A stretch of 63,043 nt of DNA, filler included, from Lophium mytilinum (GCA_010093605.1; 4 parts of 3 records of this genome joined end to end with filler, not necessarily neighbours in it); one strand, 5' to 3'. Numbered from the whole stretch's first letter, positions 19,452 to 52,180 are shown. The notes: generated by a model not told the origin, from the letters alone. Numbers and translations: made by a program.

Positions 19452-19532
19452 TAGCGTAGATAGAAATAAGGCTATAAAAAAAGATATTCTTAATTTTTCC
19501 CTACTATTAAGAGATAATTAAGTATTATTTAG

Positions 19533-19632: not shown

Positions 19633-19727
19633 AACCCTAACCCTAACCCTAACCCTAACCCTAACCCTAACCCTAACCCTAACCCTAACCCTAACCCTAA
19701 CCCTAACCCTAACCCTAACCCTAACCC
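19633..19727 (+). repeat. Telomere (CCCTAA)n, ~15-16 units, at the start of a contig
   Basis: Perfect CCCTAA array right after the linker. The C-rich strand is on +, the correct polarity for a left chromosome end. Confidence 0.97.
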
Positions 19728-19748: not shown

Positions 19749-20062
19749 GTACAGTATAGAAACATCGAGTAAAATTTCGTTACGCGTACTGTATACCTAC
19801 TAGTAAGCGTACAGTATAGAAGCATCTACTAAAATCCCTAGATGCGTACTGTATACCTACTATTAAGCGTATAGTATAGAAACATTTAGTAAAATTTTAT
19901 TAGGCGTACTATATACGTTTATCTTAGTATATACTATAGAAATATTTATTAAGGCTTTATTAGGCGTACCCTATACTTACACATTAGTATATAGTATAGA
20001 AACATTTCTATTAGTCTTATTAGGCGTAATATATGTCTATATACTAGTATATAGTATAAAAC
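19749..20062 (+). repeat. Subterminal 60-bp tandem repeat x ~5
   Basis: GTACAGTATAGAAACAT...GCGTACTGTATAC recurs at exactly 60-bp spacing and degenerates away from the telomere. Confidence 0.9.
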
Positions 20063-20354
20063 ACTTCTTTAAATTCTATTAAGTTTACATCTATTTTAAT
20101 ATATATTATAGTGTTCTTACTAGAAGACTTTCTATAGAGATCCTTTTAATTATAAATTTATATATCTTTTTTATATATATATATTATACTAATATTTTTT
20201 ATAGGGCCTTTATAGGAAGCCTTTCTATAGTAACCCTTATATTACTGCGGTAGTAATTATACTTTCTACTTACTATAGTTCTAATATGCTTCCCCTACTA
20301 TAACCTAAATTAAGTAAGTATAAATAAGTTTCTATTATATATCTCTCTATACTC

Positions 20355-23267
20355 CTAATAAGAATAATAGTTCTTATCCCCCTCCCTTATCTCTACCTCC
20401 CTCTTCCCCTCCTCTAATACCTTTCCTAACACCCCCTTCCTCCTCTCTAATACTTCTTCTAACTCTATTACTATTAACCGCGTATACTTTTCCCTTACCG
20501 CCTTCTTTCTAACTATATACCTTACTATTACTACTACCCTATTCTCCCCGTCTACTCTACTCCCCGGGAATAAACTACTTACTATAGATAGCCCCGGCGC
20601 CAGCGCACTTAGCGCCGCCTACTAATACTCCGGCTGCGGTAGCCCTAGCTCGCTCGCCAGCGCTAGCACCCGCGCCGCCGCACTGCCCGGCAGCTGCACC
20701 GCGGCGTCCTTAGAACCCCCTGCTATCTTCTACTACTTCTTTGCGGACGCGGGCTTATATATAGCGGGCAGCTATCCCTATATATAGCTAGAGTACCGCC
20801 TCCCTTACTATAGCTATATAAGCCGCTTTCTTTAATAGGTAGAGCATAGCGCGGCCGCTAAAGGGGGCGTCCTCCGGGCGGTGTAAGGCCAGCAATAGCT
20901 TAGCGGAGAAGTAGGTGCCGGTTTTAAACTTAGTAAAGGTCGGGACGGAGATTTTAAAGGCTTAGTAGAATTCTATAAAAATGCTAGTAAAGTTTTCCTA
21001 GGGTTCCTTAGGGGTAGTAGTAGTAGGAGTTAGAGTTAAAGTATATTTTTTAGTTTTACTAGGGGTGGAGACTATACCTAAGGCTTTAAGAGAGGAGAGG
21101 AGGGCAAGGCTAAGAGTAGAGGCGGCTTCTTTAGCTTCTTTCTTAGAGGTAAAGGGGCTAGTAGTAGTAAGGGAGTAGGGGGAGCTAGCAGCATAGAGGG
21201 TTAGAGTACAGTTCTAGAAGAGTAGGGAGGCGTTACTATTAAACAAGAAGATAGGTTAGGGGATAGTAAGGGCCTAGTAGCGCTAGATAAAGAGCTAGGT
21301 GTTTGCTAATAAGCGTATAGAGATAGAAATAGGTTAGAGAGTAGATTAGGCTTAGGCTCTAGCGGCGGCAACGGCGGCTTTATACTACTTCTTAAACTTA
21401 TTAATACTAAGAAGGTTTTATAGCACGCTTAGGGCACCTAGAATAGAGCCTCTATATATCTAATCTATTAACGGCGGGGTAGAGTTCTAACTGCTAAGGA
21501 AAGCTACAACCTCTATCTTTCTTTTCTTCTTAAAGCTAGAAAGCGGCGTAGTAATTAAGCTTAGTATAAAGAAAGGATAAGAATAATTATTACTGCCTAC
21601 GCTGGTGTATATATAAGGTTAAAGGCTAGCCTAAAAAGGCTAAGGTAGGGTGCTAGTTTAATCTATATAAGCTGGGGTAGCTATAGCTACTCTACTAGAA
21701 GTTATTCTTTAGTGCTTAGGTAGGAGAGACTCTATATTTATGCGTAGCGGGCTAAGTTTATAAGAGGTAAAGTGTATCGCCGCTTATAGTTACATAATAG
21801 AGCTGGAGCCCGTTTTAATTTCTACCCCTTAGATAATCTACTAAACTTTACGCTCTTTACTATCTATTAGTAAATTTAAGCTAAAGTACAGAAGTCTTAT
21901 TACGGTGCAACAACCTTTATGCAAGAAGGCGGTATATTAGATAATTTCTAGTTAGCCTTTTAATAATCCACATTGCAGTAGATAACGCTAGCGTAGCAAC
22001 TGCACCTTAGAGTGGCTTTCTTTCTATAATGTCCGCAATTTTAGGGCTTGCAAGTTAGCAACGCGGTAGTAGTAGTAATGGAAGATAAATCTTTAGGTTT
22101 TACTATAGTAGTAAAGGGTAAACTAGTGCTATTACTAGGGGTTAGGTCTAGAGGCTCCGCTATAGTAGAAGAAGATAAGACTAATAGTAGAAGAGTAGAG
22201 ATAAAGCTATTAAAGAAGAAAATAAGAGTAAGGTAAAGTAAAAGAGTAAAGCCTATTAGATAATTTCTGCGTAGATAGCGTGGAGGGCTAGGGTGCAGTT
22301 CTAGAAGGGCAGGGACGCGTTACTATTAAAGGAGAAGATGGGTTAGGGGATAGCGAGGGCCTGGCAGCGCTAGATAAAGAGTTGGGTGTTTACTAATAAG
22401 CGCGTAGAGATAGGGATAGATTAGAGCACTGCTGCTCCCGTCTAAGGTTTAGATTTAGGAGTAGATTAGGCCCTGCTGCTTCCGCTCTCTAGCTATAGCC
22501 TTAAACCTTATTTATACAGCCCTTACCTTCTTCTCTTCTATATTAATCCGCAAGCGCAGAAGCTCCTTATTCTTAGAATTATTCTTAAAAAACTTGTAGT
22601 ATCTAGGCTGCTTATAAGGCCGGGCTTAATCTTAATACTAGGCTTAATCTTTATGTTAACTTCGTCGGCTGGTTTAGGCTTAATATTAATATTAGACTTA
22701 GAAGGTGGGGCGCTGTCTCTAGTAGCTTAGAATAGGGGGTTAGCATAGTTATAGAGAGTTTAAGACTTAGTTATAGTAGGCTGCATATTAAGAGCAGTAT
22801 TAGTAGGCGTGCCTAGGCTATTACTAAAGAGGGAACCTCCATTTTAATTCTAGATAGTTGCAAGAAGTGCTTCTCTCTAGGCACAGATGCAGGTAGGGTC
22901 GGCAGTGTCCTCCGCAGTAAGCGGTTTAGTCGTGTAGGGTTAGTCTATATTAGCTAGCTTAGGAGTTATTTTAGAAATAAATAATAAGGACTCCTCTCTA
23001 GCGTTTTGTGCGGTAAGATCTGCGGCATTGCTGGGTGTATTAGGGTTAAAAAGAGGGTTCTAAGTAATAGTACCCGAGCCCATTAGTATGCCTGTTATAG
23101 CGGTGCCATTCTTAGCGTACTGCTCTTCTAAGTTAGTTACATGGGTATTTCTATAGCCTGCCGGCTTTAAAACTTTACGCACTATTAATCTATCTCTCTA
23201 AAGTGCTTTAAATGCAATTAAGAGTCTCTCCCGTGCTAGTTCTAGCTGTTAGTTTGCCTATAGCTAT
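20355..23267 (-). pseudogene. MYND zinc-finger-containing gene (possibly two genes), RIP-degraded
   Basis: The reverted minus frame at ~21950-22045 reads CGHCGKKATLRCS.CASVIYCNADCQKADWK, the zf-MYND pattern. A long frame starts near 23267, and the C-terminus matches ORF 51868-52119 of the other copy. Confidence 0.65.
21211..22426. repeat. ~130-bp internal direct duplication (21211-21339 and 22298-22426)
   Basis: GTTCTAGAAG...GATAGGTTAGAG occurs twice, flanking the MYND motif. It is also duplicated in the contig-3 copy (~50050-50175 and ~51135-51265). Confidence 0.85.
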
Positions 23268-23699
23268 AGTATAGAGAGGAATAAGCTAAAGAAGTAAGAA
23301 AAGAGAGGAAGAGTAAATTAGGCGGGCGCTAAAGCAACGCAGGGTATAGTTACGTAAACTGTATATTATAGGGACCTACTAGTTCCGCCTAAGGTAAAAT
23401 ATATATATAGTATAGTAATAAAATAAAACTCTTAGAGCTACCATTTATGTATAGTATATAGAGTTAACCTTTAAAGGTTAATTATAAGTATAGGTATAAT
23501 ATAAGTAGTTAGCACGTAATATGCTAAGATTAATAGAAACTAGCGCATTAAACCTTTTTCTAACTACTATCTATCCCTTATAGTATAGCAGCAGCCCACG
23601 CATAATACTATACGCAAGTCTTAATTAGTATACTATATACATCCTTCCTAGAGCGTTCTAGCAGATATTTATAAGATAAGAAGCGGCCTAACCTAATAT

Positions 23700-24450
23700 A
23701 GAGACGGCTGCAACCCTAAACTAGGCTAAAGTATATAAAATATAGCCCGGCACACTAAGGTTAACGCGCAGCAGCACAGCAACTCTAAATGCTAAGGATG
23801 ACGTTCGGCAGGGGTAGATATATCTACGTCTGCCCGATATATATATCCTAATAGAGCGGTTAGCTTCTCCTCTTACCACACCTAATACCCTATCTAGGCG
23901 CAAGGTTACAAATGCCACCCTAGATTTGGTTGCAAGAAGGAAGCTTATACAGCTAAAGCGCTTATTAAGACGGCTATAAGAATAGAAGCAAAGGAAAATA
24001 CTAGAATAAAAGAGCAGTTCTATTTATAATATAGAGACTATTTATAACTGCAAGAAGAAGGAAAGTTATATTAAAAGCGATAAATGGTAAGACTGTAACC
24101 CCTTAAGGATTACTATCCTTACTAATAATAAGCAGGTCTAAATACATCGCCAATAAACTAGAAAGTACAACTGCGATACCTAAATTGCCTTCCGCCGCCT
24201 AGCATGCTAAAGACTTAACAACAATATATGCAAATAACTCTTCTTCTAGTTAGTTTAGGCATTATATAATAATACACGCTTTAGGGAACTATAGGTAGAA
24301 TAAAGTTATATACAGCGTATTAATAGATAGGGTCTATAGAGAGGACTTAGCCTAGCTGTATAACTAATATTAGTAAAGAGGGTTAAATTGCAGGGTATAT
24401 AATAGTAGATTCTTTACTATAAAAAAGATAGGGAGCACATATTAATAGTG
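23700..24450 (+). pseudogene. Small divergently oriented gene with one predicted intron, unknown function
   Basis: Coding-like frame with a GTAAG...CTAAT...CAG intron at ~24087-24135. No confident domain. Confidence 0.35.
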
Positions 24451-24913
24451 CAGATATAACAGAGCAGTATTAGAATATAATTACCCTCCCTAACTATATA
24501 AACTATAGCGGATAAGACCGCCCCCTATAATATAGATAAATAAAATAAATATTATATTATATATAAGATACGCAAGGCATAGTTATAGTGGTGAATATTA
24601 CGCTATATTCTATAGTTAAGTAAGCCGCTATCTAGAGGCTAAATATAAACTAGGAAATTTTAAGGGTATAAAGTATACTACTACTATAGAGCAGTGCTAA
24701 CTATTAGGGGGTAGGGGATGGAACGCAAGTAAGAAATTAGAATAGTAAAAAGTTGGCAGTACTAAGTAAGTAGGTGCAAACTAATAGCAAGAAAAGTAGT
24801 CCTAATTAGAACCGTTAGAAAGAAAAAGAAAAAGATATTAAGAGATACTAAACTAAATCTAAAAAGTAGAATAAGGGCCCCTACGGGAAGCCTTTCTATA
24901 AAGACCCTACTAG

Positions 24914-27900
24914 TTATACCTTACTATTAGACTTCTCCGGCGCTATGCTAGTTCCCTTTAATTTACTACCATCCTCTTTACTATTAGGGTCGGTATCTGC
25001 ACCTAATGCCGCGGGTGGTCGGCCGACGTTAGAATTATTCTTCCGCCTGCGTAGGTCTATTTTTGGTCTAGTAGAGTTTGCAGACTTCTACGCGGCAGCT
25101 TTCTTCTTAGCAGCCTTCCTTTCGCGCTAAGGGCGCTACTTAGTAATCTCTTTCTTTATTATATACTTATACGGACGATATATAAGGGATTTAGATATAG
25201 GGTCTTTCTTAGCTGCTTTATCCTTCTTTATAGTAGGCTTCTTTTTTGCGCCTTAGCGCTTCCAACTCTTATTAGTATTGCTAGAGGATATAGTCTTTAG
25301 GGTTGGCTGCAAGGCCCCTTCTATAAATTCTAGCGGGTTATCTAAGTTACTACTATAGTTGCTATTACGCTTAAAGGCAACTTTAGATGGTATAGTAGTA
25401 AAATCCGGGTAATTATTAAGATACTCCCCGTTTTACTTATTAGTCTTAGACGGGACGTTCTCTATATTAACGTCGGGGGTTTTAATATTCTTCTTATTCT
25501 GCTTATTATCTATATTAATATTAGCTTTTAGTAGTAAATAAAAAACTAGATCATCTATAGAATCCTGCGAGGAGATAGTAGATATTTCGCGCTGCCTCTT
25601 CTTCTATATATTAGGCAACGGGACGGGGTCTATAGAAGGGGTCCTAATAAGGCGTCTATTAAAGGTGCTAAGAGGGCTAGAAGGTAGGGTTAAAGTAGGT
25701 TAACGGGTGGAAGTAGGAGCTGCTATAATAGTTAGCACTTAAGCAATATAATAGGCGATACTAAAGGGCCCTAGCAGGAAGGCTTTCTAAAAAGGCCCTA
25801 GAATGAATTCTTACCTATATACTTTACAAGAAATAAAGTATTATTCTTATACTCTTTACCTTTAGAGTTATTACTATTTAGCCTACTAAAAGGGTTATCG
25901 CCGTTTATATTACTAAAAATAGCGGGTACTTAACGCAAAGGGTTACGCTCCGGCCTATGTTAATGGATAAAAGGGGTATAAGCATTTCTAGTAGCGCTCT
26001 TTATAGGGGTGGGCATATTAGATTTAGTAGAATCTAAGTCTTTAACTATAATAGTAGACTTAGGGTTAGGCTTGCGCTTCTTAATAGCAGCCGCTGGTAT
26101 AGTACTAGCTTTACGCTTCTACTTTAAAGCTTTACTATTTTATTGCTCTAGCGTCTTTAGCTTTAGCTTTAGGGTGGCTTTTACTATAAAACACGAATTA
26201 GCAAAGTATAAAGAGGCAAGTAGGGCCCTAGCAGGAAGCCTTCCCGCTAGAACCTATAAGGGCGAACTTACTGCTTGCAGGATAACGCTTAAGCCTTAAA
26301 CCTAGCTTATTAACACGCGGTTTCTTAGGCGCTCTACTTGCACCCTTCTCCTACTCTTCTTCTAATTCCAATTTGGTGAATTCGTACGCTTATTCTTCTT
26401 AGAACTTATTACTAAACCCACTAGACTAAAAAGTTATATTGCCTCGCGTAAGGGTTATTAGAAATATAAGGATATCTTATAGGGAGTTAAAGCGCTTAAT
26501 ATATAATTCTACCGGCATATTTAAAATATCTATTTCGCCTATAATAAGGCGGGGTGTAATGCTCTTATTATTATAGGTTACCTACGCATACTGGCTATCT
26601 AGGGTTAGCTTTTCCTTAGAGGTCCCCTCCACCTTAATCTAGTTAGTGTTTAACGCAGCAGTAAGACTAGGAAGCGCTATCTACACCTAGCGCGAGAGAG
26701 TAAAGGCATTAAATGTGTCCTGGATAAAGAACGCAGTTACTATAATAGTAAACTTCTGGCTAATCCTATATAAACGCGCTATTATTTACTTCTTAATCTA
26801 AATAGAGCCTGTAGGGTTAAAAAGATATATATTATAGTAAGTAGACTATAGATTAAGCCTAGCTCTATTAGCCTGGTAACTAGTAATAAGGATCTTTACT
26901 TTAGAGTTAGGGTCGTTAAACACTAAGATAAGGTTGTCCCGGTTAGTAGTAGAGAGATTAGAGGCTAATATATAAGCATCTATTTTATAATAGTTAATAA
27001 TCTTAGCAAGAATTATTTACTTATCCAGGTAGTTAGTCTAGATAATAACCTTCTCTATACGCTTAATAACGTTGTTAGCTAAATAGTATAGTAGTATAGC
27101 CACTTTAGGGGCATTATAGATAAAAAGGGCGACAATATAATAAAAGGATGCGGACTTTACTTTAAAGTCTTTTTAATTAGGGTTAGTTTAGACGTTCTTA
27201 TTCCGGGCAATTTACTTTATTATGCCTCGCAAAACGTCTATTTCCTTTAACTAGTGACCGCCATTATTCTTAAGAGGGATAATTTTCGGGCCGTCCTTAA
27301 TCTTATTGCCTTCTAAATCTAAAACCTTCTCTTGCGGATATACTATTATGGCGCGCTTAGAGTAGACTAAAAATGGCGCAGTACTTATAAGGTTAAAAGC
27401 ACGCATAGAGCATGCGTTAAATGCATAGGTGCGCTAGCCTACGCGGTTCTTAGTAGGAACTATTAATAACTTAAGGTAGGCTGGCGATTTATTGGCATAG
27501 ATAATATGGCCTAGTTTTATAGGCTGTAGCTTAATTACTCGCGTAACTAACCGCGGAAGTAATTCTCTAATTCGGGTGGCAGGATTAGTAGAATTATTTA
27601 GGCATGTAGAAGGGTATAAGCAAGTAATTATATACTTGCTAAAAATTAAGCGCAAATAAAGCCCCTGTATAATCCTGGAGAAATATTAGAAAATTAAAGT
27701 AAATAAGAGGAGAGATAAGGGCCCTGGCTAGAAGCCTTTCTACTAGGGCCCTTTATATAATAACTTACGGGTTAAATAAAGGCAGAATAAAATTTTTAAA
27801 AGCCTTGCGTGTATACTAGAAAATTATACCTAAATAGTTATTAGGAAGCTTAAACGGATTATTAGTACCCGGAATAAACTTAGCTTTACCGGGTTTTAAG

Positions 27901-30702
27901 CAGTACGTGCGGAATTATAGATGCTTATCTCTTAGTTCTATAAAAGATATATAAGCAGGCATATTAGTAATGCCTATATATAGCGGGGTTCTACTATAGA
28001 GCATAGTAAAGTCTAAGTAAAGCTATAACGCAGTTAGGTGGAGGTTTACTTAGTTGCTTTTAATAAGCTAGCACTTGTCTATAAATTGGACGTTAAAACA
28101 GCCACTTAAGAGACCGGGCTAGGTGGAGCTTAGGCGATATTTAACCTAATTCTTTAGCTTAGTAAGATTATTGTTGCTATACTACTTTAATGCGGGCTAG
28201 GGACCGTGCCAACCGGCCATTACCTAATAGCTGGCAATTACGATGCTCTTAGTATTTACCTTATTTTTAGTATTAAATAAGGGATGGTCCCTGGTTAAGG
28301 TGTTATATAGAAACGTAGCGCTATAGAAAGCAACTTAGCCCTTTAATAAATAGATGTAGAGCTTAAGTTTAGAACTAAACTTTGCAAGTTTATTCGCTAT
28401 TTAGTGTACTAAAACGGAAGGCACAAGAAAAAGGAAGGGCTTCGCCGGCCCGGGGTCTTTCTTATCTATAACTTTGCGCTGGCGCTTAGTAATAAGCTAT
28501 AATTAAATTAGTAGATGCTAAGAGAAACTATTAGGGGGGTAGTAGAAAGGCTTTCTATTAATACTCTTTAAAGAGAAATTGCTTACATATCTAATAAGGG
28601 TAGCCATTAAAAATATCTTTCTAATACTAACCTTATCTATAATTAAAGCCCTACTAAGAAAGCCTTTCTATATAATATAGTATATATAGTAAGCCCTAGT
28701 AATCTACTACCACCTTAAGTAAATATTGCCATTTATTATAATAAGGCGGGGTTTCTAATAGTTATAAATGCGTAGGGCCTTTATTACTTCTTTTAGGTTA
28801 TCTAGCTAATAGGCTTTATTAGTTATTAGAAGGCGGAGTATACTCTATATTGTAAGATCTACCGCGGTTAGTATAGTAAAGGGGATAATATTCTTTACAT
28901 TAATAGCGGTAGCCCTTATATTAGCCTCCATATCTTAGGCATGTTTAATACTGTCTAGATTAGCATACTTGTCCTTATTTAGATCTACAGCGCGCATATT
29001 TAGGTGCTATTTAACGGTATATATAAAATCTCCTGCTATCTATCTAATTACCCGATATGCGTTGTATTAAAACTTTAACGAGTTCTAGTTAATTATTGCT
29101 CCGGTGCGCTTAGCATGCATAATTACTAACTTAAGCTCCTGTTTTATAGTGCCGGTGATGTACTTAGCACTAGTAATATTAACGTTGCCTTTCTTCTTAT
29201 TAACTAGGTTTGCAGCAATTTCCTCTTTAGATAACCCCTAGATAGGGTTGTCTGCGTTAACCTCTATATTAATGGCCGCGAGTTCCTCCTTAGTAAAATA
29301 AGAGGGCAACTGCCGACAGGGAGGCCTAGAAGGGCCTTAACGGAAAGGCTTCCTATTAATATTCTTACTACTATAAGCAATGGTTTTGGCCGGGGTCTTA
29401 GGTGCCGGTGCTAGACTAAGCTTTATTTTTTAAAGAATATTCTATATCTTAATTTAGTTCTTAGTACAGGCGGTTCTACTAGCTTAAGACGGGCCACTCT
29501 TAAACTCTATATTTTTCTTTAATTTAAAGAAGATTCTAAGCGCTTTATTATTAGTAATATTAGCGCGGTTGTGCAAAAACCCACTAAACCGCTTCCGGTA
29601 GTAATTAAAGCATTAACTAATAAATTAAGCTGCCTAATCCACGGGTTTGTAGTTATCCGTCTTAGGCTAAGAAGTAGTATATCGCTGCAGATTATGCAAC
29701 TTGCCAGTCTTAAAAGCGTTTAGAATAGTAGTAAAACTGGCCCCTTAATCCTAACTATGCATAGCGCGCTTTAGGTCTAAATACCTATCCTTATACTTAT
29801 TCTAAATTGCTTAGAAATTAGGCTTAGCTAGAATTACTTTAAGTTCTGCTTTTATTTAACTATAAAGCTTGGCTAACTTTATTCTACTAGCATACAGCGT
29901 GTTTACTAAGGCCTATAACTTCTCTAACTCTTTATCTTTTCTAGTACTAGTAACTAGCGCTTAAAGCTTCTCCTGCTCTTTATTAGAGTTCTTAGGGATA
30001 TTAGAGTTATTACTATAGTTATCGCTATCTAGATAAACTACTTTACTATTTGCTAATGTAAGCGTCTCCGGATCTATTATAGTGGCCGGCTAATCGCGCT
30101 TTAAATTAACATGGGCATTAACCCTTAATTTAGTAACTAGTAGGGAGGTAGAATTTAGATCTTCTAGCACTTTAGAAGAAGTAGATTATTTCTTATAGCT
30201 ATCTACTAGGTTAGTTGCAGGTAATATGCGCAGGAATGCAACCTTTACTACTACTTTGCTAGGGTCCCTATTACTTAAGGTATTTATAGCTAGTCTATTA
30301 ATATGTTAGCTTATTTTAAATAATAGAAGAAAGAAGGCAGGCAAAGGGCCCTAGTAGGAAGGCTTTCTGCCAAGACCCTTTGCACTATGCCGGGTATTTT
30401 TAGTATTATTATTTTCTCGACATTTTCTACCGCCGCATCTTTAAAATTAAGGCAGACTAATCTACTAAGACTAGTAAAGGGCCCTAGCAGAAAGCCTTCC
30501 TGCAATAATTCTTATAATATACTTACCTCACTCCACTCTTAGAGAAATTGCGATGGAATAAACCTGTTAGCAGAATTAGCTATAACGTAACTTAATTTTA
30601 CCTGCTGGACAGTAAACTTACTAAAAGGCTTAACCGCTAGCTAAAAAGACGCCTAAAATAAGCTAATTGCGGCTCTAATGTAGCTAGGAAACTACTAACT
30701 AT
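24914..30702 (-). pseudogene. SNF2/SWI2-family helicase-like ATPase, 6 predicted introns, RIP-degraded
   Basis: Reverted motifs: GGALIADEVGIGKT (Walker A, ~28615-28655), KPFLFLVPSVLVHQ, FMDECQLIK (~28060-28087), YSGTP, KVIIWT, and GAGLNLQSACHNVHLFDP...EKQAIARLYRIGQ (~26755-26870). Introns GTAAG...CTAAY...YAG at 25723-25814, 26184-26271, 27675-27768, 28497-28586, 30295-30526 and 30564-30621. Confidence 0.9.
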
Positions 30703-31379
30703 TATCTAGTAAGTAAGGGTCTAGCGCGCAACTGTTCTATAGGTAGCTAGATAAGTGGAAGTAATAGGAGTGCGGTGGTGTAGAAGGAGAGGTTAGTATA
30801 GAAGTAAGAAAGTTAAAGCTGCCAGGCGGTAGATAAGTTCGTGGGCGGCCGGGCCGATAGCCGCCGGCCGCTAAGACGCTAAGCCTTTAACAGTAAACTA
30901 CTTAAGTTAACTCTTAAGGTTAACGTAATAGCTGTATATTATATAAGGTTAAAATATTGCGGGTGTAAATATATCAGCGTTTTACTTAATTTCGCCGATA
31001 TATAAATATTTACGGTTAATCTATAATACTACGCTATATATTACCTAGTTCTAGTAATATAGTACTACGCTAAGATAGGTTAATAGAACATTGCGCGTTG
31101 TTGTATAACTATTTGCCTACAGTATAAGAGTCTTGCTAGAAAGCCTTCCTGCTAGGGCCCTTTGCTACTTATATTAAGCACGCCTATTATTACCTCTCTT
31201 CTTATATATATTACCGCTACGCACCTACTAGATAAGCATTTGCGTACTATATAAGAGCCTGGCTAGAAGCCTTTCTACTAACGCCCTTTATATCTTATAC
31301 TAATTACTTTACTATCTTCCTTATTAATAATTCTTCTTTATAACGCCGCCCCTGCTAGTCTACCTATTAACGCTTAAAT

Positions 31380-34300
31380 CTATATACTCCTTAGAACTCT
31401 TCTACTTAAGCCTTATTCTTCTAGGCCTCTTACTCTAAGTCCTCTAAGTCCTCTATTTCTAAGCTGTAGTTACCTAAACTCTCTTTATACTTATACTCTT
31501 TATCTAATAACTAACTACTTATATCCCCCTCTTACTCCTTCTATATCGCTAAATAATTCTAGAATTCTTTAATTATTAGAATTCTGCCTAAATAAGCCCT
31601 TAGGCTATTTAGTGTATAGTGCTTAAACCTAAGCTGGACACGTTTTAGATTAACTTAACCCCTAGGGCCTATAATATTATCCTCTATTATTATTATCTTT
31701 AACTTTCCTGGGCTTCCCTAGGTTATATTCTATACTTCCTTTGCAACTACGTCTATGCTAAGGTTAACTGCCCCCCCTTAAGCCTGTTCTTTAATATATT
31801 AGCTTAGTTAGGCTACCTTATAGTAGTAGCTATTTAGTAGTTGCATATAGATCTACTATATATTTATAATTATATCTCTTCCCCTAATATTATCTTATAT
31901 ATCTTTAGAGTTGTTTTATTTAGCTTAACGCGTGGTTAAAATTTTGTTGTTATTATATCTTAAAAGAACCTAGAGTAATAAGGCGGCTCTTGCTTATAGA
32001 TTATTAAGGAATTATTCTACCGTTTTTAGTAACGCTTCATTTCTAATTATTGCATTTAATCTTCGCAATTTTATGCGGAAGGGACTGTTGTTCTATTTTT
32101 AAGTTTCTGCAGCTGGATCTATAATATTAAATAGCGGCTAGACTTAATTAATCCAGCGTCTAGTTAAGTGCCTTAGATAATTTGTATTACTATTTCTAGC
32201 TACATTCTACACGTAGGTGTAGCTTACTATAAGTTCTAACTTTCTATATAGCTTTATAAGCATATTAGGATAAAGCGCAACTATAGATCTATTTAGAATA
32301 CTCTTAAGAAATTAGTCGCGTAGTTCTTTACTCTTCTATTACGTCTTAGTATTTCTATCTTCTCCTATATACTATCTACTTAGAAGCTCGTATATATTAG
32401 TATAGTATGCCTTAATAATAAGCGCAGCTGCCTTACCTATCCATAGCGGTGCCAATCGCCAATCTTTTTGCACTTTAGTCCTATTTTCGCGTTAAATAGC
32501 TGGCGTGTACTATGCTGCAATACTATACTATAGATACCGCATCTCTATATTCTCCCTAGTAAGAGATACCTAAATCTAAGCTTTAGTAAACGTAGCTTAG
32601 AATTAATTCCTAAGGCCGGCTTGCAGTTAATTAACGCCTTAAGGGCTAAGTTGTGGGGGCGTTGTTGTCTAATCTAAGTACTCTAACTTTAGCTAAGCTA
32701 TGCTATACTTCTTAAGGGAGTCTAATAACCTAAGGCTATACAAGGTTACAGGATTCTAGGGGTCTTTTTAATTTATCCACTCTTTTTTCTACAGTATAGA
32801 TAATTAAGTAGGATTACCACATCTAGCAGTAATTTACGCAAGGCGGATATAAAGAGATGCTAAATAACTATTTACTAGCTATTTATCTAGTATTACTATA
32901 TGCCTAGCATTACGCCCCGGGGTAACCTAAAGAGACAGTACCTGGAAAAGAAATACCTAGCAATTAAGGTTTACAATAGTAAAGGCATTAACTTCTTCTA
33001 TAGAAAGAACCTAGTAGGGGTAATAAGGCTTACTACTATTGTCCGGCCCATCCTTTATAGTAAATTTAGGACTTGCGCTTTCTTTAAGTTGCTTAAGTAT
33101 AGTAAGAAGTACTTAGAACTTAGTTTAAACCCTATAGAATAAGTGTCTATCTCTCTAGAGTATAGTATAGTGGCGTTAGAGAATAGCAGCAAGACTATCC
33201 TAAAGCTATTTTCTTTTTAATAATTCTCTAGAGCTACCTGCCGCTTTAAACCACCGCTTAATTATTTTAGTTAAGAACGTAAGAGCTTCTAGTTAAGTAT
33301 TATAAAAGGGCGTAATATTCTTAACGGGTAACTTAAGTATAATCTTATTACTATTATAGATTTTATTATATACTATACTACTAATACAGCTATAGTTACC
33401 TACTTAGAGCTCTACTATTAGAGATAACGCGCCCTAGATAAGATAGTAGGGGTACAATGTTATATAAATCTTTTCTTTTCCGCCGTTGTAGAAGTAAGTG
33501 GCCTAGTAGTTATTATAGCTAGTTTTGCGTAGAAGGGTAACCCCGGTATCTAGCTAATTAGTAGTTAGGATATCTTTATATCTATAGTTAATCTATATCC
33601 CCTTATCTAGTATATTAATTGGGTTTTTATTAAAAGTAGTAGTTAAAGTACGTAGTAGCTAATCTCTACTTTAAATTATACTTAAGGACTTATATGCCAT
33701 TTTTAGATTATAACCCGAGACTACTAGGAATACTCCTTTAAATAAATCTTTAGGTATAGTATCTATTTCTGCAAAGTTTTCTATGTTATAAAGAACTTAG
33801 TTCTAGAATTCTTAGAGTTAACACTATAGAATTATATACTTAGTATTAATATAAGAGTCTCTAGATAATATTATATATTTTTCTTTCTTAACGCTTGCTT
33901 TACCCTATATAATATTAAAACTGTGTAGTATATGCTACTACTTATTAGGTGTTAGAGTATACTTTACTACAGGTAAGATAATATTATTGAGCTAAGCTGC
34001 TTACATTATATCTAGTAGATGCAAAGTATTGCCCTTTTGCTTATTTAGTGTTGGCATCTAGGGGAAAAACACGTAAGTTTTAAATTAATGCTTATACCTG
34101 TGCCCTATGCAAAGCTACTTTATTATATAGAGCTTATGGCCGCGTATTATAATGCGTTAGTTTTAAGTAATACTTTAGAGGAAGGATAGTTATAGAGATA
34201 GTAAGAAGTACAAATTATAGGCCGCTAAAGTAGAGATGCCAATAATAACGCTATTAATATTATACACTCGCTGGATTTTAATCTCTTTATTTGCTATAAA

Positions 34301-36520
34301 GCTAGCTTTAGACCTTATAAAACTAAGCCTTAGAGTTTCTATATTACTAGTTTCTCCGCTTAACATTAATTTCTATAGGACATTATTAAAGTTATTAGAA
34401 TTATTCTCTCTCTATAATAGCTCTAGTTGGCTTATTAGATAGAAGGCTGTATTGGCTATAATAGGCTCTTATTAGGAGGGAAGGTTCTAAGCCAGAAGAA
34501 AGCTAGTAACTTAGCTAAGGGATCTGCTCTAAGAAACTATTATATAGTTACTTGCTATATTATAATATTAGCTACTATATTATCTAAATAGAAAGAGTTA
34601 AGATATATAGTAAGTACACTAGACTTCTAACGCTAATTAGATTATACTTACTACATATAGAGTATTTACTAATAGATTATTATGCCTACGTATATTAGCT
34701 TTATATAAACTATAGGGCTTATAATACTTGCCTATTAGGGTCTATCTTATCTATAACTTTGTCTATAATCTCGCTGTTACCTTCACTATTTAAGGCTGTA
34801 TTATCTACCCTACTGCCTTAATTCTCTAGTATAACTTCGTTAAGTAAACCCAGTAATTTATCTATAGTGTCTTGCTATCCTTGCATATATATACCTTCTC
34901 TACCCTCTTTAACTCTATTATCTAATACCTTATCTATATCTGCACCTGCTTCTATCTTATTCTTAAGTTAGGTAAATTCCTCTTCTATAACCTCGGTTAC
35001 TGGCGTTAGGCGGAGAGATAATAAGGTAGCGTACCACTCCATCTAAACCTAACCGTTGTTGTGCGCTAGTTGCATAAACCAACTTATATTAGCTAGCATT
35101 TCCTCCTTATCTATTTATTCCGCAGCGTCTATTCTAGAGAGCACTTCTACGGCCTTATTTTATTGCGCTAAGAATAATTCCGCTGTAATCTCTTTGTTAG
35201 TTATTTGCGCGAGTATATAGAGCAGTAATACAGTAATAAGGGCTAGTGTTTAGCGTTATATTATTAGTTCTAGTTATGCAGGAGTAGAAGCTACTATAGT
35301 TTATTAAGCGCGTAAACTTGCGCGTAGTATTATAGCCGTCTATAAAGTATTCTAGAGGGCAAGGATAGTATATACGCCTGTATATATATATAGTATAGCT
35401 GCGGGTTTAAGAAATACTTTGCAGAGATAGCGTATAGCGGGTAGAACCCAGCCCGGAGCTCTATTATTATTATTTACGGCTTGCCGAGGTGTCCCTACGC
35501 TGGAAGGTAGTAATAGAGAGGGCAACACCTCTCTAGTATCTAGAGGCGGTGGTAACGCAGGTGTATAAGGAGACAACGCGGAAGATATAGGTAACAGCAA
35601 CTCTAATACTGCCTCTTCTACTTCTTTATCTACTTAGGCTACTTCTTTATTTACTTTACTTTCTTTAGCTACTTCTTCTTCTTCTTTAACTGCTGCTCCC
35701 TTAATAGTCTATATAACAGCATACTTACTACTATTACTCTAATCTTACTCTATAGCTTCCGTTAATTCTATGTTGCTTTAAATTTTAGGTATATATTAGG
35801 CCGCTCTTAACTTACTAGAGCGTGTACTACTGCTAGTAGACTGCTAGGTATAAGAAAGTTATATTAGTTAAGTAGGTTAAGAGGTTAAAGGAGCGAAAGA
35901 ACAAGTACTACTATAAGTAGCCCGCCCTAGAGTAGAATATTAGGTAGGTTTAGTAGATAGAGGAGGAGCGGTAGAATAGATACTACTATAGGTAGACCGC
36001 TATAGAGAAGTATATTACGTAGATTACGTAGGTTAGATAGATAGAGGAGGAATAGTAGAACGGGTACTACTATAAGTAGACTGCTGCGGAGGAGTATATT
36101 ACGTAGATTAAGTAGAGGTAGAAGGTAATAATTCTTCTATTAAGACGGGTTCTACTTAAGTTTATTAGAACCTAACTATAAATACTAGGAGATTATAAAA
36201 GATATACTAATTATAAGTTATGCAATAGTTTCCTCTAAAGGCTCCTAAGGTGCAATTAGTTATTAAAAGGGCGTAGGCGCAGGGCGGGTGGGATAAGGGG
36301 CCCTAATATTTATACTAGAAAGACCTCTAGGGTTTTTAAAGATAATTAGAAACAGATCTAGAATAGAAGTAGGAGTAGGCTTGCTAGCCTCTCCTACTAT
36401 AGCTGTTTAGTCTATAGCCCTCTTCTTTTTATCTCTTTTACGTTGGTTCAAATCCACTATTAAACGTAATTTAGCTGCTTTTCGCTCTTCTTTATTCTAG
36501 TACTTTCGGGGGCGTCCTAT
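31380..36520 (-). pseudogene. Large protein of unknown family with N-terminal AT-hook (MGRPRKY), Pro/Ser-rich linker and acidic tail
   Basis: Start at 36520 reads M(ATA)GRPRKYQNEEERKAAK. A long continuous reverted frame at ~34200-32200 has motifs YVFFP, WLDDIILPA, QHMPHSF, SGHDLK, WIDYGYED, TLLRK, YNKIYN, PFHNTQLEAL and GLGL..SLKKYGMAW. Confidence 0.6.
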
Positions 36521-36799
36521 ACTAACTACTAGGTATAGTAGTAAGGGGAATAATAGTTTAGAATATAGAGCTAAGGAGCGGAAAGCGGTTAGGGAGTGTA
36601 ATTAGTTAAAAATAAGGATTTATTAATATTCTTATTATAGGGCTTACCCCGCCTAACCCGTTTTAACACCCCTTACAGATACGGCCACTCGGTTAAGGTC
36701 GCTGGGGAAGGGCCCTAGTAGAAAGGCTTTCTGCGGTAGCCCTATTAATTGCTTTATCTATAAACGTTGTATAAACTATATCCTGCCCTTTACTTTATA

Positions 36800-37771: not shown

Positions 37772-38220
37772 TTTATATATAACTACTACTACTACTATAG
37801 CCTATATATTAATTCTAAGTTAATAGATTACTATTATATTATATATTATATATAATCCTTTATATATTTCTTCTATACTATATTATAGTAGTTGCATGCA
37901 GTAGTAGTTATACTAATTCTTAAGCGCGAGGCTATTCTTACGCTAAACCCTTTAAGTAATTTCTATTCTATGCCTGCGCACTCTATAGCCTCTCTATATC
38001 TACCTTAAGCCACCACTACGGCTTATAAATTAAATTAAAGTTAATAGAACGCTATTATATTATATTCTAAGCATTATTCTTTGCATGCATACTCTATTTC
38101 ACGTTATAGTAGTTAAATGCAGCAGTGTAAGGTTATACTGCACGCAATTCTTAAAGGTTAATTTTCTCTATATTAAACTTACTTCTCCCTATCTAACCCT
38201 AACCCTCTAGCCCCTATAAT
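37770..38220. mobile_element. Truncated tandem copy: last ~450 bp of the telomere-linked element
   Basis: Direct repeat of 37310-37760 with the same end, CCCTCTAGCCCCTATAAT. Confidence 0.92.
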
Positions 38221-41100
38221 AGTAGGAAGCCTTTCTATAATAATTCTTATAATACGCTTACCTTACTCTACTCTTAGAGAAATTATAATAGAATAAACCT
38301 ATTAGTAGAATTAGCTATAATATAACTTAATTTTACCTGCTAGATAGTAAACTTACTAAAAGGCTTAACTACTAGCTAAAAAGACGCCTAAAATAGGCTA
38401 ATTGCGGCTCTAATATAGCTAGAAAGCTGCTAACTATTATCTAGTAAGTAAGAAACTAGCGCGTAACTATTCTATAGGTAGCTAGATAAATAGAAGTAAT
38501 AGGGGTGCGGTAGTATAGAAGGAGAAGTTAGTATAAAAGTAAGAAAGTTAAAGCTACTAGGCGGTAGATAAGTTTATAGGCGGCCGGGCTAATAGCCGCC
38601 GGCTACTAAGACGCTAAGCCTTTAATAGTAAACTACTTAAGTTAACTCTTAAAATTAATATAATAGCTATATATTATATAAGGTTAAAATATCGCGGGTA
38701 TAAATATATTAGTGTTTTACTTAATTTTACTAATATATAAATATTTATAGTTAATCTATAATACTACGCTATATATTACCTAGTTCTAGTAATATAGTAC
38801 TGCGCTAAGATAGGTTAATAGAATATTGCGCGTTATTATATAACTATTTACCTATAGTATAAGGGTCTTACTAGAAAGCCTTTCTACTAGAGCCCTTTAC
38901 TACTTATATTAAGTATATCTATTATTACCTCTCTTCTTATATATATTACTGCTATATATTTACTAGATAAGTATTTACGTACTATATAAGAGCCTAGCTA
39001 GAAGCCTTTCTACTAATACTTTTTATATCTTATACTAATTACTTTACTACCTTTCTTATTAATAATTCTTCTTTATAACGCCGCCTCTACTAGTCTACCT
39101 ATTAATGCTTAAATCTATATACTCCTTAAAACTCTTCTACTTAAGCCTTATTCTTCTAGGCCTTTTACTCTAAGTTCTCTAAGTCCTCTATTTCTAAGCT
39201 ATAGTTACCTAAACTCTCTTTATACTTATACTCTTTATCTAATAACTAACTATCTATATCCCCCTCTTACTCTTTCTATATTACTAAATAATTCTAGAAT
39301 TCTTTAATTATTAGAATCCTACCTAAATAAGCCCTTAGGCTATTTAGTATATAGTACTTAAACTTAAGCTAGATATATTTTAGATTAACTTAACCTCTAG
39401 GGCCTATAGTATTATCCTCTATTATTATTATCTTTAACTTTCCTGGGCTTCCCTAGATTATATTCTATACTTTCTTTGCAACTATATCTATACTAAGGTT
39501 AACTACCCCCCTTTAAGCCTATTCTTTAATATATTAGCTTAGTTAGGCTACCTTATAGTAGTAGCTATTTAGTAGTTATATATAGATCTACTATATATTT
39601 ATAATTATATCTCTTTTCCTAATATTATCTTATATATCTTTAGAGTTATTTAGTTTAGCTTAACGCGTAGTTAAAATTTTATTGTTGTTATATCTTAGAA
39701 GAACCTAGAGTAATAATACGGCTCTTACTTATAGATTATTAAGGAATTATTCTACTGTTTTTAGTAACGCTTTATTTCTAATTATTATATTTAATCTTTA
39801 TAATTTTATATAGAAGGGACTATTATTCTATTTTTAAGTTTCTATAGCTGGATTTATAATATTAAATAGCGGCTAGACTTAATTAATCTAGCGTCTAGTT
39901 AAGTATATTAGATAATTTATATTACTATTTCTAGCTATATTCTATATATAGGCATAGCTTACTATAAGTTCTAACTTTCTATATAGCTTTATAAGCATGT
40001 TAGAATAAAGTATAACTATAAATCTATTTAGAATACTCTTAAGAAATTAGTTATATAGTTCTTTACTCTTCTATTATATCTTAGTATTTTTATTTTCTTC
40101 TATATACTATCTACTTAGAAGCTTATATATATTAGTATAGTATACCTTAATAATAAGCGCAGCTACCTTACCTATCTATAGTGGTGCTAATTGCTAATCT
40201 TTTTATACTTTAGTTCTATTTTTATATTAAATAGCTAGCGTATACTATACTATAATGCTATACTATAGATACTATATCTCTATATCCTCCCTAGTAAGAG
40301 ATACTTAGATCTAAGCTTTAGTAAATATAGCTTAAAATTAATTCCTAAGGCCGGCTTATAGTTAATTAACGCCTTAAGGGCTAAGTTATAGGGGCGTTAT
40401 TATCTAATCTAAGTACTCTAACTTTAGCTAAGCTATGCTATACTTCTTAAGGGAGTCTAATAACCTAAGGCTATATAAGGTTATAGAATTCTAGGAGTCT
40501 TTTTAATTTATCTACTCTTTTTTCTATAGTATAGATAATTAAGTAGAATTACTATATCTAGCAGTAATTTACGCAAGGCGGATATAAAGAGATGCTAAAT
40601 AACTATTTACTAGCTATTTATCTAGTATTACTATATACCTAGTATTACGCCCGGGGGTAACCTAAAGAGATAGTACCTAGAAAAGAAATACCTAGTAATT
40701 AAGGTTTATAATAGTAAAGGTATTAACTTCTTTTATAGAAAGAACCTAGTAGAGGTAATAAGGCTTACTACTATTATCTGGCCTATTCTTTATAGTAAAT
40801 TTAGGACTTGCGCTTTCTTTAAGTTACTTAAGTATAGTAAGAAGTACTTAGAACTTAGTTTAAACTCTATAGAATAAGTATCTATCTCTCTAGAGTATAG
40901 TATAGTAGTGTTAGAGAATAGTAGTAAGACTATTCTAAAGCTATTTTCTTTTTAATAATCCTCTAGAGCTATCTACTGCTTTAAACTACTACTTAATTAT
41001 TTTAGTTAAGAATATAAGAGCTTCTAGTTAAGTATTATAAAAGGGCGTAATATTCTTAATAGATAACTTAAGTATAATCTTATTACTATTATAGATTTTA
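38220..41100. mobile_element. Truncated tandem copy of the telomere-linked element (matches 30485-33365), running into the contig end
   Basis: Colinear direct repeat, visibly more RIP-mutated than copy 1. Confidence 0.92.
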
Positions 41101-41200: not shown

Positions 41201-41929
41201 AAGAGGCCTAGAAGAATAAGGCTTAAGTAGAAGAGTTCTAAGGAGTATATAGATTTAAGTATTAATAGGTAGACTAGTAGGGGCGGCGTTATAAAGAAGA
41301 ATTATTAATAAGAAAGATAGTAAAGTAATTAGTATAAGATATAAAGAGCGTTAGTAGAAAGGCTTCTAGCTAGGCTCTTATATAGTACATAAATGCTTAT
41401 CTAGTAGGTGTATAGCGGTAATATATATAAGAAGAGAGGTAATAATAGGCGTACTTAATATAAGTAGTAAAGGGCCCTAGTAGGAAGACTTTCTAGCAAG
41501 ACCCTTATACTATAGGTAAATAGTTATATAATAATGCGCGATATTCTATTAACCTATCTTAGCGCAGTACTATATTACTAGAACTAGGTAATATATAGCG
41601 TAGTATTATAGATTAACCGTAAATATTTATATATTGGCGAAATTAAGTAAAATACTAATATATTTACACCTGCAATATTTTAACCTTATACAATATATAG
41701 CTATTATATTAACCTTAAGAGTTAACTTAAGTAGTTTACTATTAAAGGCTTAGCGTTTTAGCGGCCGGCGGCTATTAGCCCAGCCGCCTATAAACTTATC
41801 CGCCGCCTAGCAGCTTTAACTTCTTTACTTCTATACTAACCTCTTCTTCTATACCACCGCACCCCTATTACTTCCACTTATCTAGCTACCTGCGGAACAG
41901 TTGCGCGCTAGTTTCTTACTTGCTAGATA

Positions 41930-44900
41930 ATAGTTAGTAGCTTTCTAGCTACGTTGGAGCCGCAATTAGCTTATTTTAGGCGTCTTTTTAGCTAGCGGTT
42001 AAGCCTTTTAGTAAGTTTACTATCTAGTAGGTAAAATTAAGTTATATTATAGCTAATTCTACTAACAGGTTTATTCTATTGCAATTTCTCTAAGAGTAGA
42101 GTAAGGTAAGCGTATTATAAGAATTATTACAGGAAGGCTTCCTGCTAGGGCCCTTTACTAGTCTTAGTAGATTAGTCTGCCTTAATTTTAAAGATGCGGC
42201 GGTAGAAAATGTTAAGAAAATAATAATACTAAAAATACCCGGTATAGTGTAAAGGGTCTTAGTAGAAAGCCTTTCTACTAGGGCTCTTTATCTACCTTCT
42301 TTCTTCTATTATTTAAGATAAGCTAATATATTAATAGGCTAGCTATAAATACCTTAAGTAATAGGGACCCTAGCAAAGTAGTAGTAAAGATTACATCCCT
42401 GCGCATATTACCTGCAACTAACCTAGTAGATAGCTATAAGAAACTATCTACTTCTTCTAAAGTACTAGAAAATCTAAATTCTACCTTCCTACTAGTTACT
42501 AAATTGGGGGTTAAGGCCCATGTTAATTTAAAGCGCAATTAGCCGGCCACTATAATAGATCTAGAGACGCTTACATTAGTAAATAGTAAAGTAGTTTATC
42601 TAGATAGCGATAACTATAGTAATAACTCTAATGTCCCTAAAAACTTTAATAAAGAGCAAGAAAAGCTTTAAGCGCTAGTTACTAGCAGTAGGAAAGATAA
42701 AGAGTTAGAGAAGTTATAGGCCTTAGTAAACACGCTATATGCTAGTAGAATAAAGTTAGCTAAGCTTTATAGTTAAATAAAAGTAGAACTTAAAGTAATT
42801 CTAGCTAAGCCTAATTTCTAAGTAATTTAAAATAAGTATAAGGATAGGTATTTAGACCTAAAGCGCGCCGTATATAGTTAGAATTAAGGGGCTAGTTTTA
42901 CTACTATTCTAAACGCTTTTAAGACTAGTAAGTTGCATAATCTACAGCAATATACTACTCCTTAGCCTAAGACGGATAACTATAAACCCGTGGATTAGGT
43001 AGCTTAATTTATTAGTTAATGCTTTAATTACTACTAGAAGCGGTTTAGTAGGTTTTTATATAACTGCGCTAATGTTACTAATAATAAAGCGCTTAGAATC
43101 TTCTTTAAATTAAAGAAAAATATAGAATTTAAGAGTGGCCTATCTTAAGCTAGCAGGACTGCCTATACTAAGAACTAAATTAAGATATAGAATGTTCTTT
43201 AAAAAATAAAGCTTAGTCTAGCACTAGCACCTAAGACCCCGGCTAAAACTATTACTTATAGCAGTAAGAATATTAATAGGAAGCCTTCCCGTTAAGGCCC
43301 TTCTAGGCCTCCCTGTTAGCAGTCGCCCTCTTATTTTACTAAGGAGGAACTCGCGGCCATTAATATAGAGGTTAACGTAGATAACTCTATCTAGGGGTTA
43401 TCTAAAGAGGAAATTACTATAAACCTAGTTAATAAGGAGAAAGGTAATATTAACGTTACTAGCGCTAAGTATATTACCGGCACTATAAAATAGGAGCTTA
43501 AGTTAGTAATTATGCATGCTAAGCGCACTAGAGTAATAATTAACTAGAACTTATTAAAGTTTTAATATAACGCATATTAGGTAATTAGATAGATAGTAGA
43601 AGATTTTATACATGCTATTAAATAGCACCTAAACATGCGCGCTGCAGATCTAAATAAGGACGAGTACGCTAATCTAGATAGTATTAAACATGCCTAAGAT
43701 ATAGAGGCTAATATAAGGGCTACTGCTATTAATATAAAGGATATTATCCCCTTTACTATACTAACCGCGGTAGATCTTACAACGTAGAGTACACTCCNNN
43801 NNNNNNNNNNNNNNNNNNNNNNNNNNNNNNNNNNNNNNNNNNNNNNNNNNNNNNNNNCTTATTAGATATATAAGTAATTTCTCTTTAAAGAGTATTAATA
43901 GAAAGCCTTTCTACTACCCCCCTAATAGTTTCTCTTAGCATCTACTAATTTAATTATAGCTTATTGCTGAGCGCTAGCGCAAAGTTGCAGATAAGAAAGA
44001 CCCTAGGCCGGTAAAGCCCTTCCTTTTTCTTATACCTTCTGTTTTAGTATACTAAATAGTAAATAAACTTATAAAGTTTAGTTCTAAACTTAAGCTCTAT
44101 ATCTATTTATTAAAGGGCTAAGTTACTTTCTATAGCGCCACGTTTCTATATAACACCTTAACTAGGGACTATCCCTTATTTAATACTAAAAATGAGACGA
44201 ATACTAAGAGTATTATAATCGCCAGCTATTAGGTAATAGCTAGTTAGCACGGTCCCCAGCCCGCATTAAAGTGGTATAGCAATAACAACCTTGCTAAGCT
44301 AAAGAACTAGGTTAAATATTACCTAAGCTCTACCTAGCCTAGTCTCTTAAGTAGCTATTTTAACGTCTAATTTATAGATAAGTGCTAGCTTATTAAAAGC
44401 AACTAAGTAAATCTCTACCTAACTATGTTATAGCTTTACTTAGACTTTACTATACTCTATAGTAGGACCCTACTATATATAGGCATTACTAATATGCCTG
44501 CTTATATATCTTTTATAGAACTAAGAGATAAGCATCTATAATTCCGCACGTACCGCTTAAAACCTAGTAAAGCTAAGTTTATTCTAGGTACTAATAATCC
44601 ATTTAAGCTTCCTAATAACTATTTAGGTATAATTTTCTAGTATACACGCAAGGCTTTTAAAAATTTTATTCTATCTTTATTTAACCTGTAAGTTATTATA
44701 TAAAGGGCCCTAGTAGAAAGGCTTCTAGCTAGGGCCCTTATCTCTCCTCTTATTTACTTTAATTTTCTAACATTTCTCTAGAATTATATAGGGGCTTTAT
44801 TTACGCTTAATTTTTAGCAAGTATATAATTACTTACTTATACCCTTCTATATGCCTAAATAATTCTACTAATCCTGCCACCCGAATTAGAGGATTACTTC

Positions 44901-52119: not shown

Positions 52120-52180
52120 AAGTATAGAGAGATATATAATAGAAACTTATTTATACTTACTTAATTTAGGTTATAGTAGG

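Follow-up and report, generated by a model that had tools for sequence, protein, structure and literature searches.

The origin of short symmetrical sequences in fungal introns is an open point of the intron-gain debate, and a 63-kb stretch of Lophium mytilinum DNA (63,043 nucleotides, four contigs in chain and not one molecule; hereafter the window, i.e., the whole stretch analysed) brings the question down to a single locus. Did a 37-bp palindrome that sits in most introns of a degraded SNF2-like gene make these introns, did it settle in introns that already existed, or is it kept there for a function? The answer tentatively favoured below is the second.

The unit is a 37-bp palindrome, AAGGGCCCTAGC(A/G)GGAAG-S-CTTCC(T/C)GCTAGGGCCCTT, consisting of two inverted arms of 18 nt around one central base, G or C, so that terminal inverted repeats are present. 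Its limits are given by a profile of 42 arms, in which conservation runs from the flanking AA/TT to the centre; a preliminary description of this DNA had rightly recognised a palindrome but put its size at about 33 bp, without the conserved AA/TT. Several copies keep CGGGAAG, and the A at arm position 11 may be a product of G by repeat-induced point mutation (RIP). The dispersal described earlier is real: for the 16-mer arm CTTCCTGCYAGGGCCC with at most two mismatches, 14 matches were found in the window versus 0.00 expected from 100 shuffles, and a 45-bp profile built from 14 copies gives 26 distinct sites at E < 0.01, all within 20200-47603 and none in 1-19532 or 47604-63043. Once paralogous duplicates are dropped, 12 independent copies remain between 20.2 and 36.7 kb (E from 1e-12 to 4e-4), irregularly spaced at 114 to 5456 bp. 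These are 12 of the 13 copies originally listed, namely 20204, 24875, 25766, 26223, 27719, 28534, 29332, 30346, 30479, 31128, 31254 and 36710. The thirteenth, at 28648, has an E of 0.065-0.096, aligns without gaps to the N-lobe coding sequence of a homologue of the SNF2-like gene (P0059) upstream of Walker A, and is probably not a palindrome copy; a weaker copy suspected near 20113 is not significant (E 0.38).

A self-comparison placed a second, inverted copy of the block 20294-31431 on the next contig (91.6% identity for 52180-43858, 92.5% for 43797-41201), and 30485-33365 was found repeated directly at 38220-41100 with 91.0% identity. Each of the two additional copies of the block has paralogues of the palindrome copies. 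The inverted copy has counterparts of all 11 block sites at corresponding positions, and there the profile also confirms the homologous copies reported at 44705, 46201 and 46658; three sites are common to the block and the direct duplicate. The following features are concerned; copies of the palindrome are entered without strand.

41201..52180, minus strand: inverted paralogue of 20294-31431, about 92% identity, on a separate contig
41342, 41467, 42118, 42249, 43273, 43886, 44700, 46198, 46656, 47564: palindromes in the inverted copy
38220..38242: palindrome cut short where the direct duplicate 38220-41100 (= 30485-33365) starts on its left side
20204..20236: palindrome copy at a distance of about 480 bp to a telomere tract
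31254..31286: copy carrying the variant arm CTTCTAGCCAGG, upstream of the SNF2 gene
36710..36742: copy that lies outside the SNF2 gene and has no nearby splice signals

The two large copies differ at 881 of 10,902 aligned positions, and 868 of these 881 differences are transitions, with CpA>TpA as the most frequent context and CpG as the second. Judged by established knowledge of RIP, this decay signature is that of RIP in a filamentous fungus, and the degradation covers the entire window.

The gene that carries most of the palindromes lies on the minus strand, which corrects the orientation assumed at the outset, and comprises the following recognisable parts.

24800..31200 (ends approximate), minus strand: SNF2-family pseudogene, degraded by RIP
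28811-26594, minus strand: ATPase core, by homology
about 28621-28590, minus strand: Walker A remnant, aligning to homologue P0059
about 27136-26600, minus strand: Helicase_C lobe

A HMMER search with the read-through exon 26597-27706 gave 159 relatives (best 1.7e-31), and of seven relatives scanned five have SNF2-rel_dom and five Helicase_C. When 66 relatives of at least 550 aa were compared with all six frames, they aligned to the minus strand only, in collinear blocks at about 28505-27771 and 27685-26594, and P0059 also aligns to 28811-28575, Walker A remnant included. The SNF2 N-lobe and Helicase_C thus stand in order together with motif I, as in an SNF2-family ATPase, the nearest solved structures being generic SNF2/Rad54, Rad5, Mot1-like and Fft3. 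The window's own Helicase_C match stays below the Pfam cut-off (16.2 vs 23.5 bits, E 0.013), Pfam returned no family for the minus-strand read-through of 25500-31501 with X at stops, and a word-index search with homologue P0001 returned only P0001 itself. Stop-codon density suggests a former coding span from about 31.2 kb to about 24.8 kb. Since the whole window holds no open reading frame (ORF) of at least 130 codons, N runs aside, this helicase-type gene is a pseudogene. Reversal of RIP from the two copies raised the GC content only to 0.40 and restored no long ORF, and therefore the exons upstream of 28.8 kb are placed by stop density alone. Four pieces of a presumed-RNA run lie on the window and none on the SNF2 gene, which says nothing about expression. 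The literature retrieved on subtelomeric SNF2 genes and telomere-linked helicases concerns, in its excerpts, helicases of the RecQ type.

With respect to the introns of this gene, the following features were recognised.

27675..27768, minus strand: 94-nt intron, GTAAGT..TCTAAT..CAG, phase 2, with palindrome 27719-27751
28497..28586, minus strand: 90-nt intron directly past Walker A, with palindrome 28534-28566
26184..26271, minus strand: 88-nt intron, GTAAGT..GCTAAT..ATAG, with palindrome 26223-26255; a frame switch 1>0 fits
25723..25814, minus strand: 92-nt intron, GTAAGA..GCTAAC..ATAG, with palindrome 25766-25798; a frame switch 0>1 fits
30439..30526, minus strand: 88-nt intron, GTAAGT..AAAG, with palindrome 30479-30511; splice signals only
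30564..30621, minus strand: canonical palindrome-free intron of 58 nt, GTAAGT..GCTAAC-AG
24875..24907: palindrome copy with a GTAAGG donor 17 nt upstream, at 24924 (minus strand); signals only
30346..30378: palindrome copy without a recognisable donor of its own; next on the minus strand come a pyrimidine tract, GCTAAC and AG
29332..29364: degenerate palindrome in a low-stop frame (..NINRKPFRxGPS..), lacking a usable donor and branch point
31128..31160: copy close to the 5′ end of the gene, with no GTAAG within 40 nt on either strand

On the minus strand between 24.5 and 31.4 kb, GTAAG occurs eight times in all. Six of these eight donors lie 15-20 nt upstream of a palindrome, the chance of a GTAAG 14-22 nt upstream of a given position being 0.011; the seventh overlaps the degenerate copy 29332, and the eighth opens the palindrome-free intron. 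On the plus strand no palindrome has a GTAAG within 40 nt upstream. The concentration in introns noticed earlier therefore stands, with six palindromes just past a donor and one intron free of them. Five palindromic introns have canonical signals, i.e., a GTAAG(T/A/C/G) donor, a CTAAY or TTAAT resembling a branch point and, 35-42 nt past the unit, a YAG acceptor; homology and frame validate one of the five. In length they measure 88, 88, 90, 92 and 94 nt, which less the 37 bp of the unit come to 51-57 nt, as compared with 58 nt for the sole palindrome-free intron, on which the whole comparison with regular introns rests.

The validated case is intron 27675-27768, the removal of which joins two homology-supported exons in frame via one split codon (by hand arithmetic): residues 5-230 of homologue P0005 end at 27771 and its residues 229-333 start at 27679, and against P0019 the join is seamless (residues 440-612, then 621-918). 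For intron 28497-28586, the distance from motif I to the next aligned block is, again by hand arithmetic, 23 aa if spliced and 53 aa if unspliced, versus 26 aa in homologue P0036; an alternative acceptor at 28518 would shorten it to 69 nt. The copy beside Walker A (28534), at first taken to be embedded in coding sequence, accordingly lies in an intron, while the other copy so described, at RKPFRQGP (29332), is indeed read through in frame. Intron 30439-30526 may instead reach 30295 (232 nt), in which case it would also include the palindrome 30346-30378. At copy 31128, ATAAGT is found 12 nt upstream in all three paralogues.

What was copied can be read from a comparison of the palindromic cores with their flanks. 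The cores have a mean pairwise identity of 0.68, or of 0.89 if only transversions are counted. The stretch from donor to core has an identity of 0.431 versus 0.455 +/- 0.03 in shuffles, 158 of 200 shuffles being as high. The 3′ stretch reaches 0.621 versus 0.542 in shuffles, a value attained by none of the 200; yet its identity to the palindrome-free intron (0.55-0.68) is about the same as that among the palindromic introns (0.55-0.71), and this similarity is therefore best taken as one of generic intron features. A common origin of the intron sequence outside the palindrome, which had been suggested for alignment, is thus not borne out, as the flanks are at the level of shuffles or of generic introns.

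The central base points in the same direction. On the minus strand it is G in seven of the 12 copies and C in five (four G and three C among the seven copies in intron context), and it agrees between paralogues in all eight comparable pairs, one of them with a G>A change attributable to RIP. An exchange of G and C is a transversion, and RIP does not make transversions; both orientations of the unit therefore occur, intronic copies included. Copies 27719 and 31254 share, in the same orientation, the derived arm variant CTTCTAGCCAGG and are for that reason sister copies about 3.5 kb apart, proof of real copying within the block. Furthermore, three copies (20204, 31254 and 36710), plus the in-frame copy 29332, lack splice signals. 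Taken together, core and flanks, orientation, intron size and signal-free copies show the 37-bp palindrome, and not the whole intron, to be what was copied.

The explanation that we prefer, tentatively and with somewhat less than even confidence, is that a palindromic mini-insertion spread into introns and spacers that already existed, at a time before multiplication of the block and before RIP. Copying of the 37-bp unit would have taken place at the level of DNA and in both orientations, its targets being AT-rich non-coding places within a single gene region: mostly short spliceosomal introns that were already there in the SNF2-type gene, and a few spacers, with one in-frame copy being tolerated. 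A perfect palindrome in an intron would fold back in the pre-mRNA and add little effective length, so that copies 13-18 nt past the donor and 35-42 nt before the acceptor would have left splicing undisturbed and been kept, and exonic copies would have been lost. Colonisation would have preceded the multiplication of the block near chromosome ends, after which RIP would have wrecked all copies. That the process was insertion, that selection acted as a filter and that events took this order is what we infer.

A number of observations weigh against this explanation. Around the 12 copies there is neither a consistent direct repeat that would mark a target-site duplication nor, their own AA/TT aside, a target consensus, a 2-nt TA duplication being undecidable in the AT-rich context. 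The paralogues show no presence/absence difference, all 11 block sites and the three duplicate sites being common, and no joint or deletion at a palindrome was found among the about 3500 contig pieces listed for each of two DNA runs matched at 80% likeness. Neither a solo arm (at most four mismatches) nor a source element with matching ends is present in the window, and the other approximately 31 kb of readable window hold no copy, which is odd for a freely mobile repeat. The unit is, at 37 bp, below any eukaryotic (nuclear) inverted-repeat element known to us. Six to seven of seven to eight introns are occupied and the unit always starts 15-20 nt past the donor, a narrowness with a roughly estimated p of about 0.006-0.02 under uniform placement in the insert-tolerant part of the intron. 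Since random insertion plus selection would not easily give such narrowness, it points to targeting or function.

Among the alternatives, an introner-like element (ILE) would have copied the whole intron of about 90 nt, with donor, hairpin, branch point and acceptor, and would thereby have made the SNF2 introns, the flanks having decayed since. The six of eight donors at 15-20 nt from a palindrome, set against the per-site chance of 0.011, would follow from such copying, as would the narrow range of 88-94 nt above the 58 nt of the single regular intron and the occurrence of several copies per gene without target-site duplication, as in the sister introns of the Hypoxylaceae (PMC8469720; this and the other papers cited here are drawn on in excerpt); in addition, if the acceptor 28518 is real, the 69-nt intron less the unit would leave 32 nt, which is too short. 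However, outside the core the palindromic introns resemble the palindrome-free intron as much as they resemble each other, in contrast to a core with a transversion-level identity of 0.89; intronic copies occur in both orientations, other copies have no splice signals at all, and subtracting the unit leaves an intron of regular length. The proposal in the preliminary description that the palindrome is the trace of an intron-generating mini-element is thus right in so far as the tie to introns is strong, but size, seamless alignment, flanks and orientations oppose generation, and we regard an introner-like origin as unlikely. Less likely than this is a maintained DNA site for a dimeric protein, either block-encoded or telomere-repeat-binding; such sites would be intronic because coding sequence cannot hold them. 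The sites of the window are confined to the block, which abuts the telomere tract; the twofold symmetry would work in either orientation, and the core is far better kept than its surroundings, its arm CCCTAG presumably resembling the site of a telomere factor (telomeric CCCTAA). The confinement to an element that had been noted earlier does hold within the window, the element being a multi-copy, RIP-degraded block that may or may not be a transposon. But a DNA site would still require a copying process to place it, and the spacing of 114 to 5456 bp is irregular. No candidate protein was identified, as Pfam applied to read-through translations of both strands of 20285-23286 gave only a sub-threshold DUF389 (E 0.079). 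Moreover, the GGGCCC ends have no CpA/TpG and should, going by the RIP contexts, be poor RIP targets, so that their survival needs no selection.

The narrow placement is met head-on by a further possibility, improbable and ranked behind the two just discussed, in which the palindrome would be a hairpin module that seeks out introns and parasitises them instead of making them, with a preferred spot about 14 nt past the donor. Such a module would be copied without target duplication and in either orientation into short spliceosomal introns, by a route with a possible link to transcription or splicing (e.g., via single-stranded DNA of R-loops or via hairpin-templated repair), which would explain the near-full occupancy of introns, the narrow position and the unrelated surrounding intron sequence. 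Most doubtful of all is an RNA hairpin past the donor that was selected intron by intron to regulate splicing or stability of the pre-mRNA, e.g., by shortening the distance from donor to branch or by recruiting a double-strand RNA-binding factor. The core indeed keeps to a narrow position, from 15-20 nt past the donor G to 35-42 nt ahead of the acceptor, and for the better-preserved copies 27719 and 26223 a hairpin continues to be predicted, the arms being damaged by RIP. On the other hand, copies outside introns could have no such role, and none of the seven stretches folded clearly stands out from its shuffles (z between -1.95 and +1.67; 7 to 192 of 200 shuffles fold equally well), for which RIP decay may account; this outcome is expected after RIP and is uninformative. 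An extension of the symmetry to the donor, pairing GUAAGU with AUUUAC or ACUUGC in two folds, was considered and rejected, as its spacing is asymmetrical and it is absent in the other folds.

Several known systems invite comparison with the palindrome, beginning with the ILEs of the Capnodiales, reportedly the subject of van der Burgt 2012. Fungal ILEs recur as entire introns in many genes, exceed regular introns in length and have stable structures (PMC3609843; also PMC4457414), and introners overall derive from many transposon types (PMC12130899). The introns described here share with ILEs the canonical spliceosomal signals, an inverted-repeat structure, the presence of several per gene and the lack of a transposon-type target duplication, and may, going by the single regular intron, also be longer than regular introns. 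They are unlike ILEs in that the ILE unit is the whole near-identical intron, found in tens to hundreds of genes, whereas here the 37-bp core alone is common, occurs in both orientations and has copies outside introns as well. In three species, near-identical introns proved to be repeats inserted into regular introns (PMC3609843); there, too, an insert makes ordinary introns alike without being an intron, and this is the closest description of the reading preferred here. The excerpted account of those repeats states neither sequence nor size, nor a filling of nearly all introns, nor a fixed distance from the donor.

The sister (stw)introns of the Hypoxylaceae are about 93 nt long, symmetrical over their full length, devoid of target duplications and functional on the coding strand only (PMC8469720). 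Like the introns of the SNF2-like gene, they are palindrome-built canonical introns of similar length, with several in some genes and no Rfam match, Rfam at gathering thresholds giving 0 matches in the present window. In contrast, the whole Hypoxylaceae intron is a terminal inverted repeat of 45-55 nt overlapping at TTTCTAGAAA (PMC8469720), whereas in the present introns symmetry is limited to 37 bp within the 5′ third, with another sequence and with both orientations represented.

Short palindromic dispersed units are also represented by miniature inverted-repeat transposable elements (MITEs), foldback elements, yeast mitochondrial GC clusters, Rickettsia palindromic elements and bacterial repetitive extragenic palindromic (REP) sequences. 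By analogy with these families, the present unit may have been dispersed by copying and tolerated in non-coding DNA and sometimes in frame (here at 29332). Unlike MITE-type units, it shows in the window no target duplication, autonomous partner or polymorphism, and its setting is nuclear and fungal; to our knowledge, a link to introns is not a trait of any of the families just named. By its 37-bp core, unrelated flanks, occurrence in both orientations and fixed place in the intron, the unit differs from all systems compared.

ILEs and the sister introns of the Hypoxylaceae are alike in their symmetry and in having no target duplications, and the mechanism by which they are copied is unknown. 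The present locus separates two things that are usually confounded, the symmetrical core as a unit of its own and the intron, with a core tied to introns far more tightly than random insertion predicts. If this were confirmed genome-wide, it would suggest that some families called introner-like are hairpin modules settling in existing introns, and the way of counting intron gains would change; if the motif were an ordinary genome-wide repeat, what remains would be a modest note on a RIP-degraded block beside a telomere.

As to the setting of the block, the make-up of the window is as follows.

19533-19632, 41101-41200 and 52181-52280: linkers N44-TTAATTAATTAA-N44, joining separate contigs
19633-41100: contig with the 12 independent palindrome copies, linker-bounded on both sides
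19633..19727, plus strand: telomere tract, (AACCCT) x15.8, the first bases of the palindrome-bearing contig
19749..20110: tandem repeats of about 60 bp, about four to six copies, between the telomere tract and the repeated block

Distances and neighbourhoods that span a linker are artificial. On account of the (AACCCT) tract and the tandem repeats that follow it, the contig start (19633-20110) can be taken, from its sequence, as a chromosome end; transcription of the SNF2-like pseudogene runs in its direction. According to the self-comparison, the outer contigs, 1-19532 and 52281-63043, duplicate one another. In the two DNA runs the summed depth of the block is several-fold above that of long single-copy contigs, with differences that are almost all transitions; the block is therefore multi-copy in the genome. 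It begins about 570 bp from the telomere tract and may be a transposon or a subtelomeric repeat, both of which are candidates.

With regard to possible relatives of the palindrome elsewhere, its exact A-variant of arm position 11 has 0 matches in JGI metagenome contigs, an R/Y-degenerate pattern has 0 in viral contigs and 0 in prokaryote genomes, and a literature search for the string gave only two unrelated primer matches for the A-variant and none for the G-variant. The inner 21-mer TAGCAGGAAGACTTCCTGCTA (A-variant) occurs at four metagenome loci, corresponding to two independent places, which were judged unrelated, as they have neither the GGGCCC ends nor further copies. In three of these metagenome contigs, related to one another (L001, L003 and L004), TAGCAGGAAGACTTCCTGCTA is present once each inside a different, longer imperfect palindrome that ends in CATAC..GTATG and is followed by GTAAGT.

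Each arm of the palindrome (e.g., at 27719-27751) has CCCTAG / CTAGGG, one base off telomeric CCCTAA / TTAGGG, and some two helical turns separate the two telomere-like motifs of a palindrome. On its left side, the 2.9-kb direct duplication breaks inside the left arm of palindrome 30479-30511 (30485 = 38220), which in this single case may have served as a breakage or recombination point.

Within the block, long contigs of the DNA runs and one contig of the presumed-RNA run match 20285-23146 at about 82-88% identity. They have G/C at A/T positions of the window and thus resemble a paralogue not subjected to RIP, and they are without 1.1 kb that the window has at 21233-22332, a difference tied to the internal repeat 21190-21339 / 22277-22426. 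At 37317-38221 there is a tandem repeat of 460 bp in two copies with 91% identity, each unit ending in CTAACCCTAACCCTCTAG, a telomere-like dimer; AACCCTAACCCTCTAG, which lies within this dimer, is present also at 55199, and GGGTTAGGG is present at 22340.

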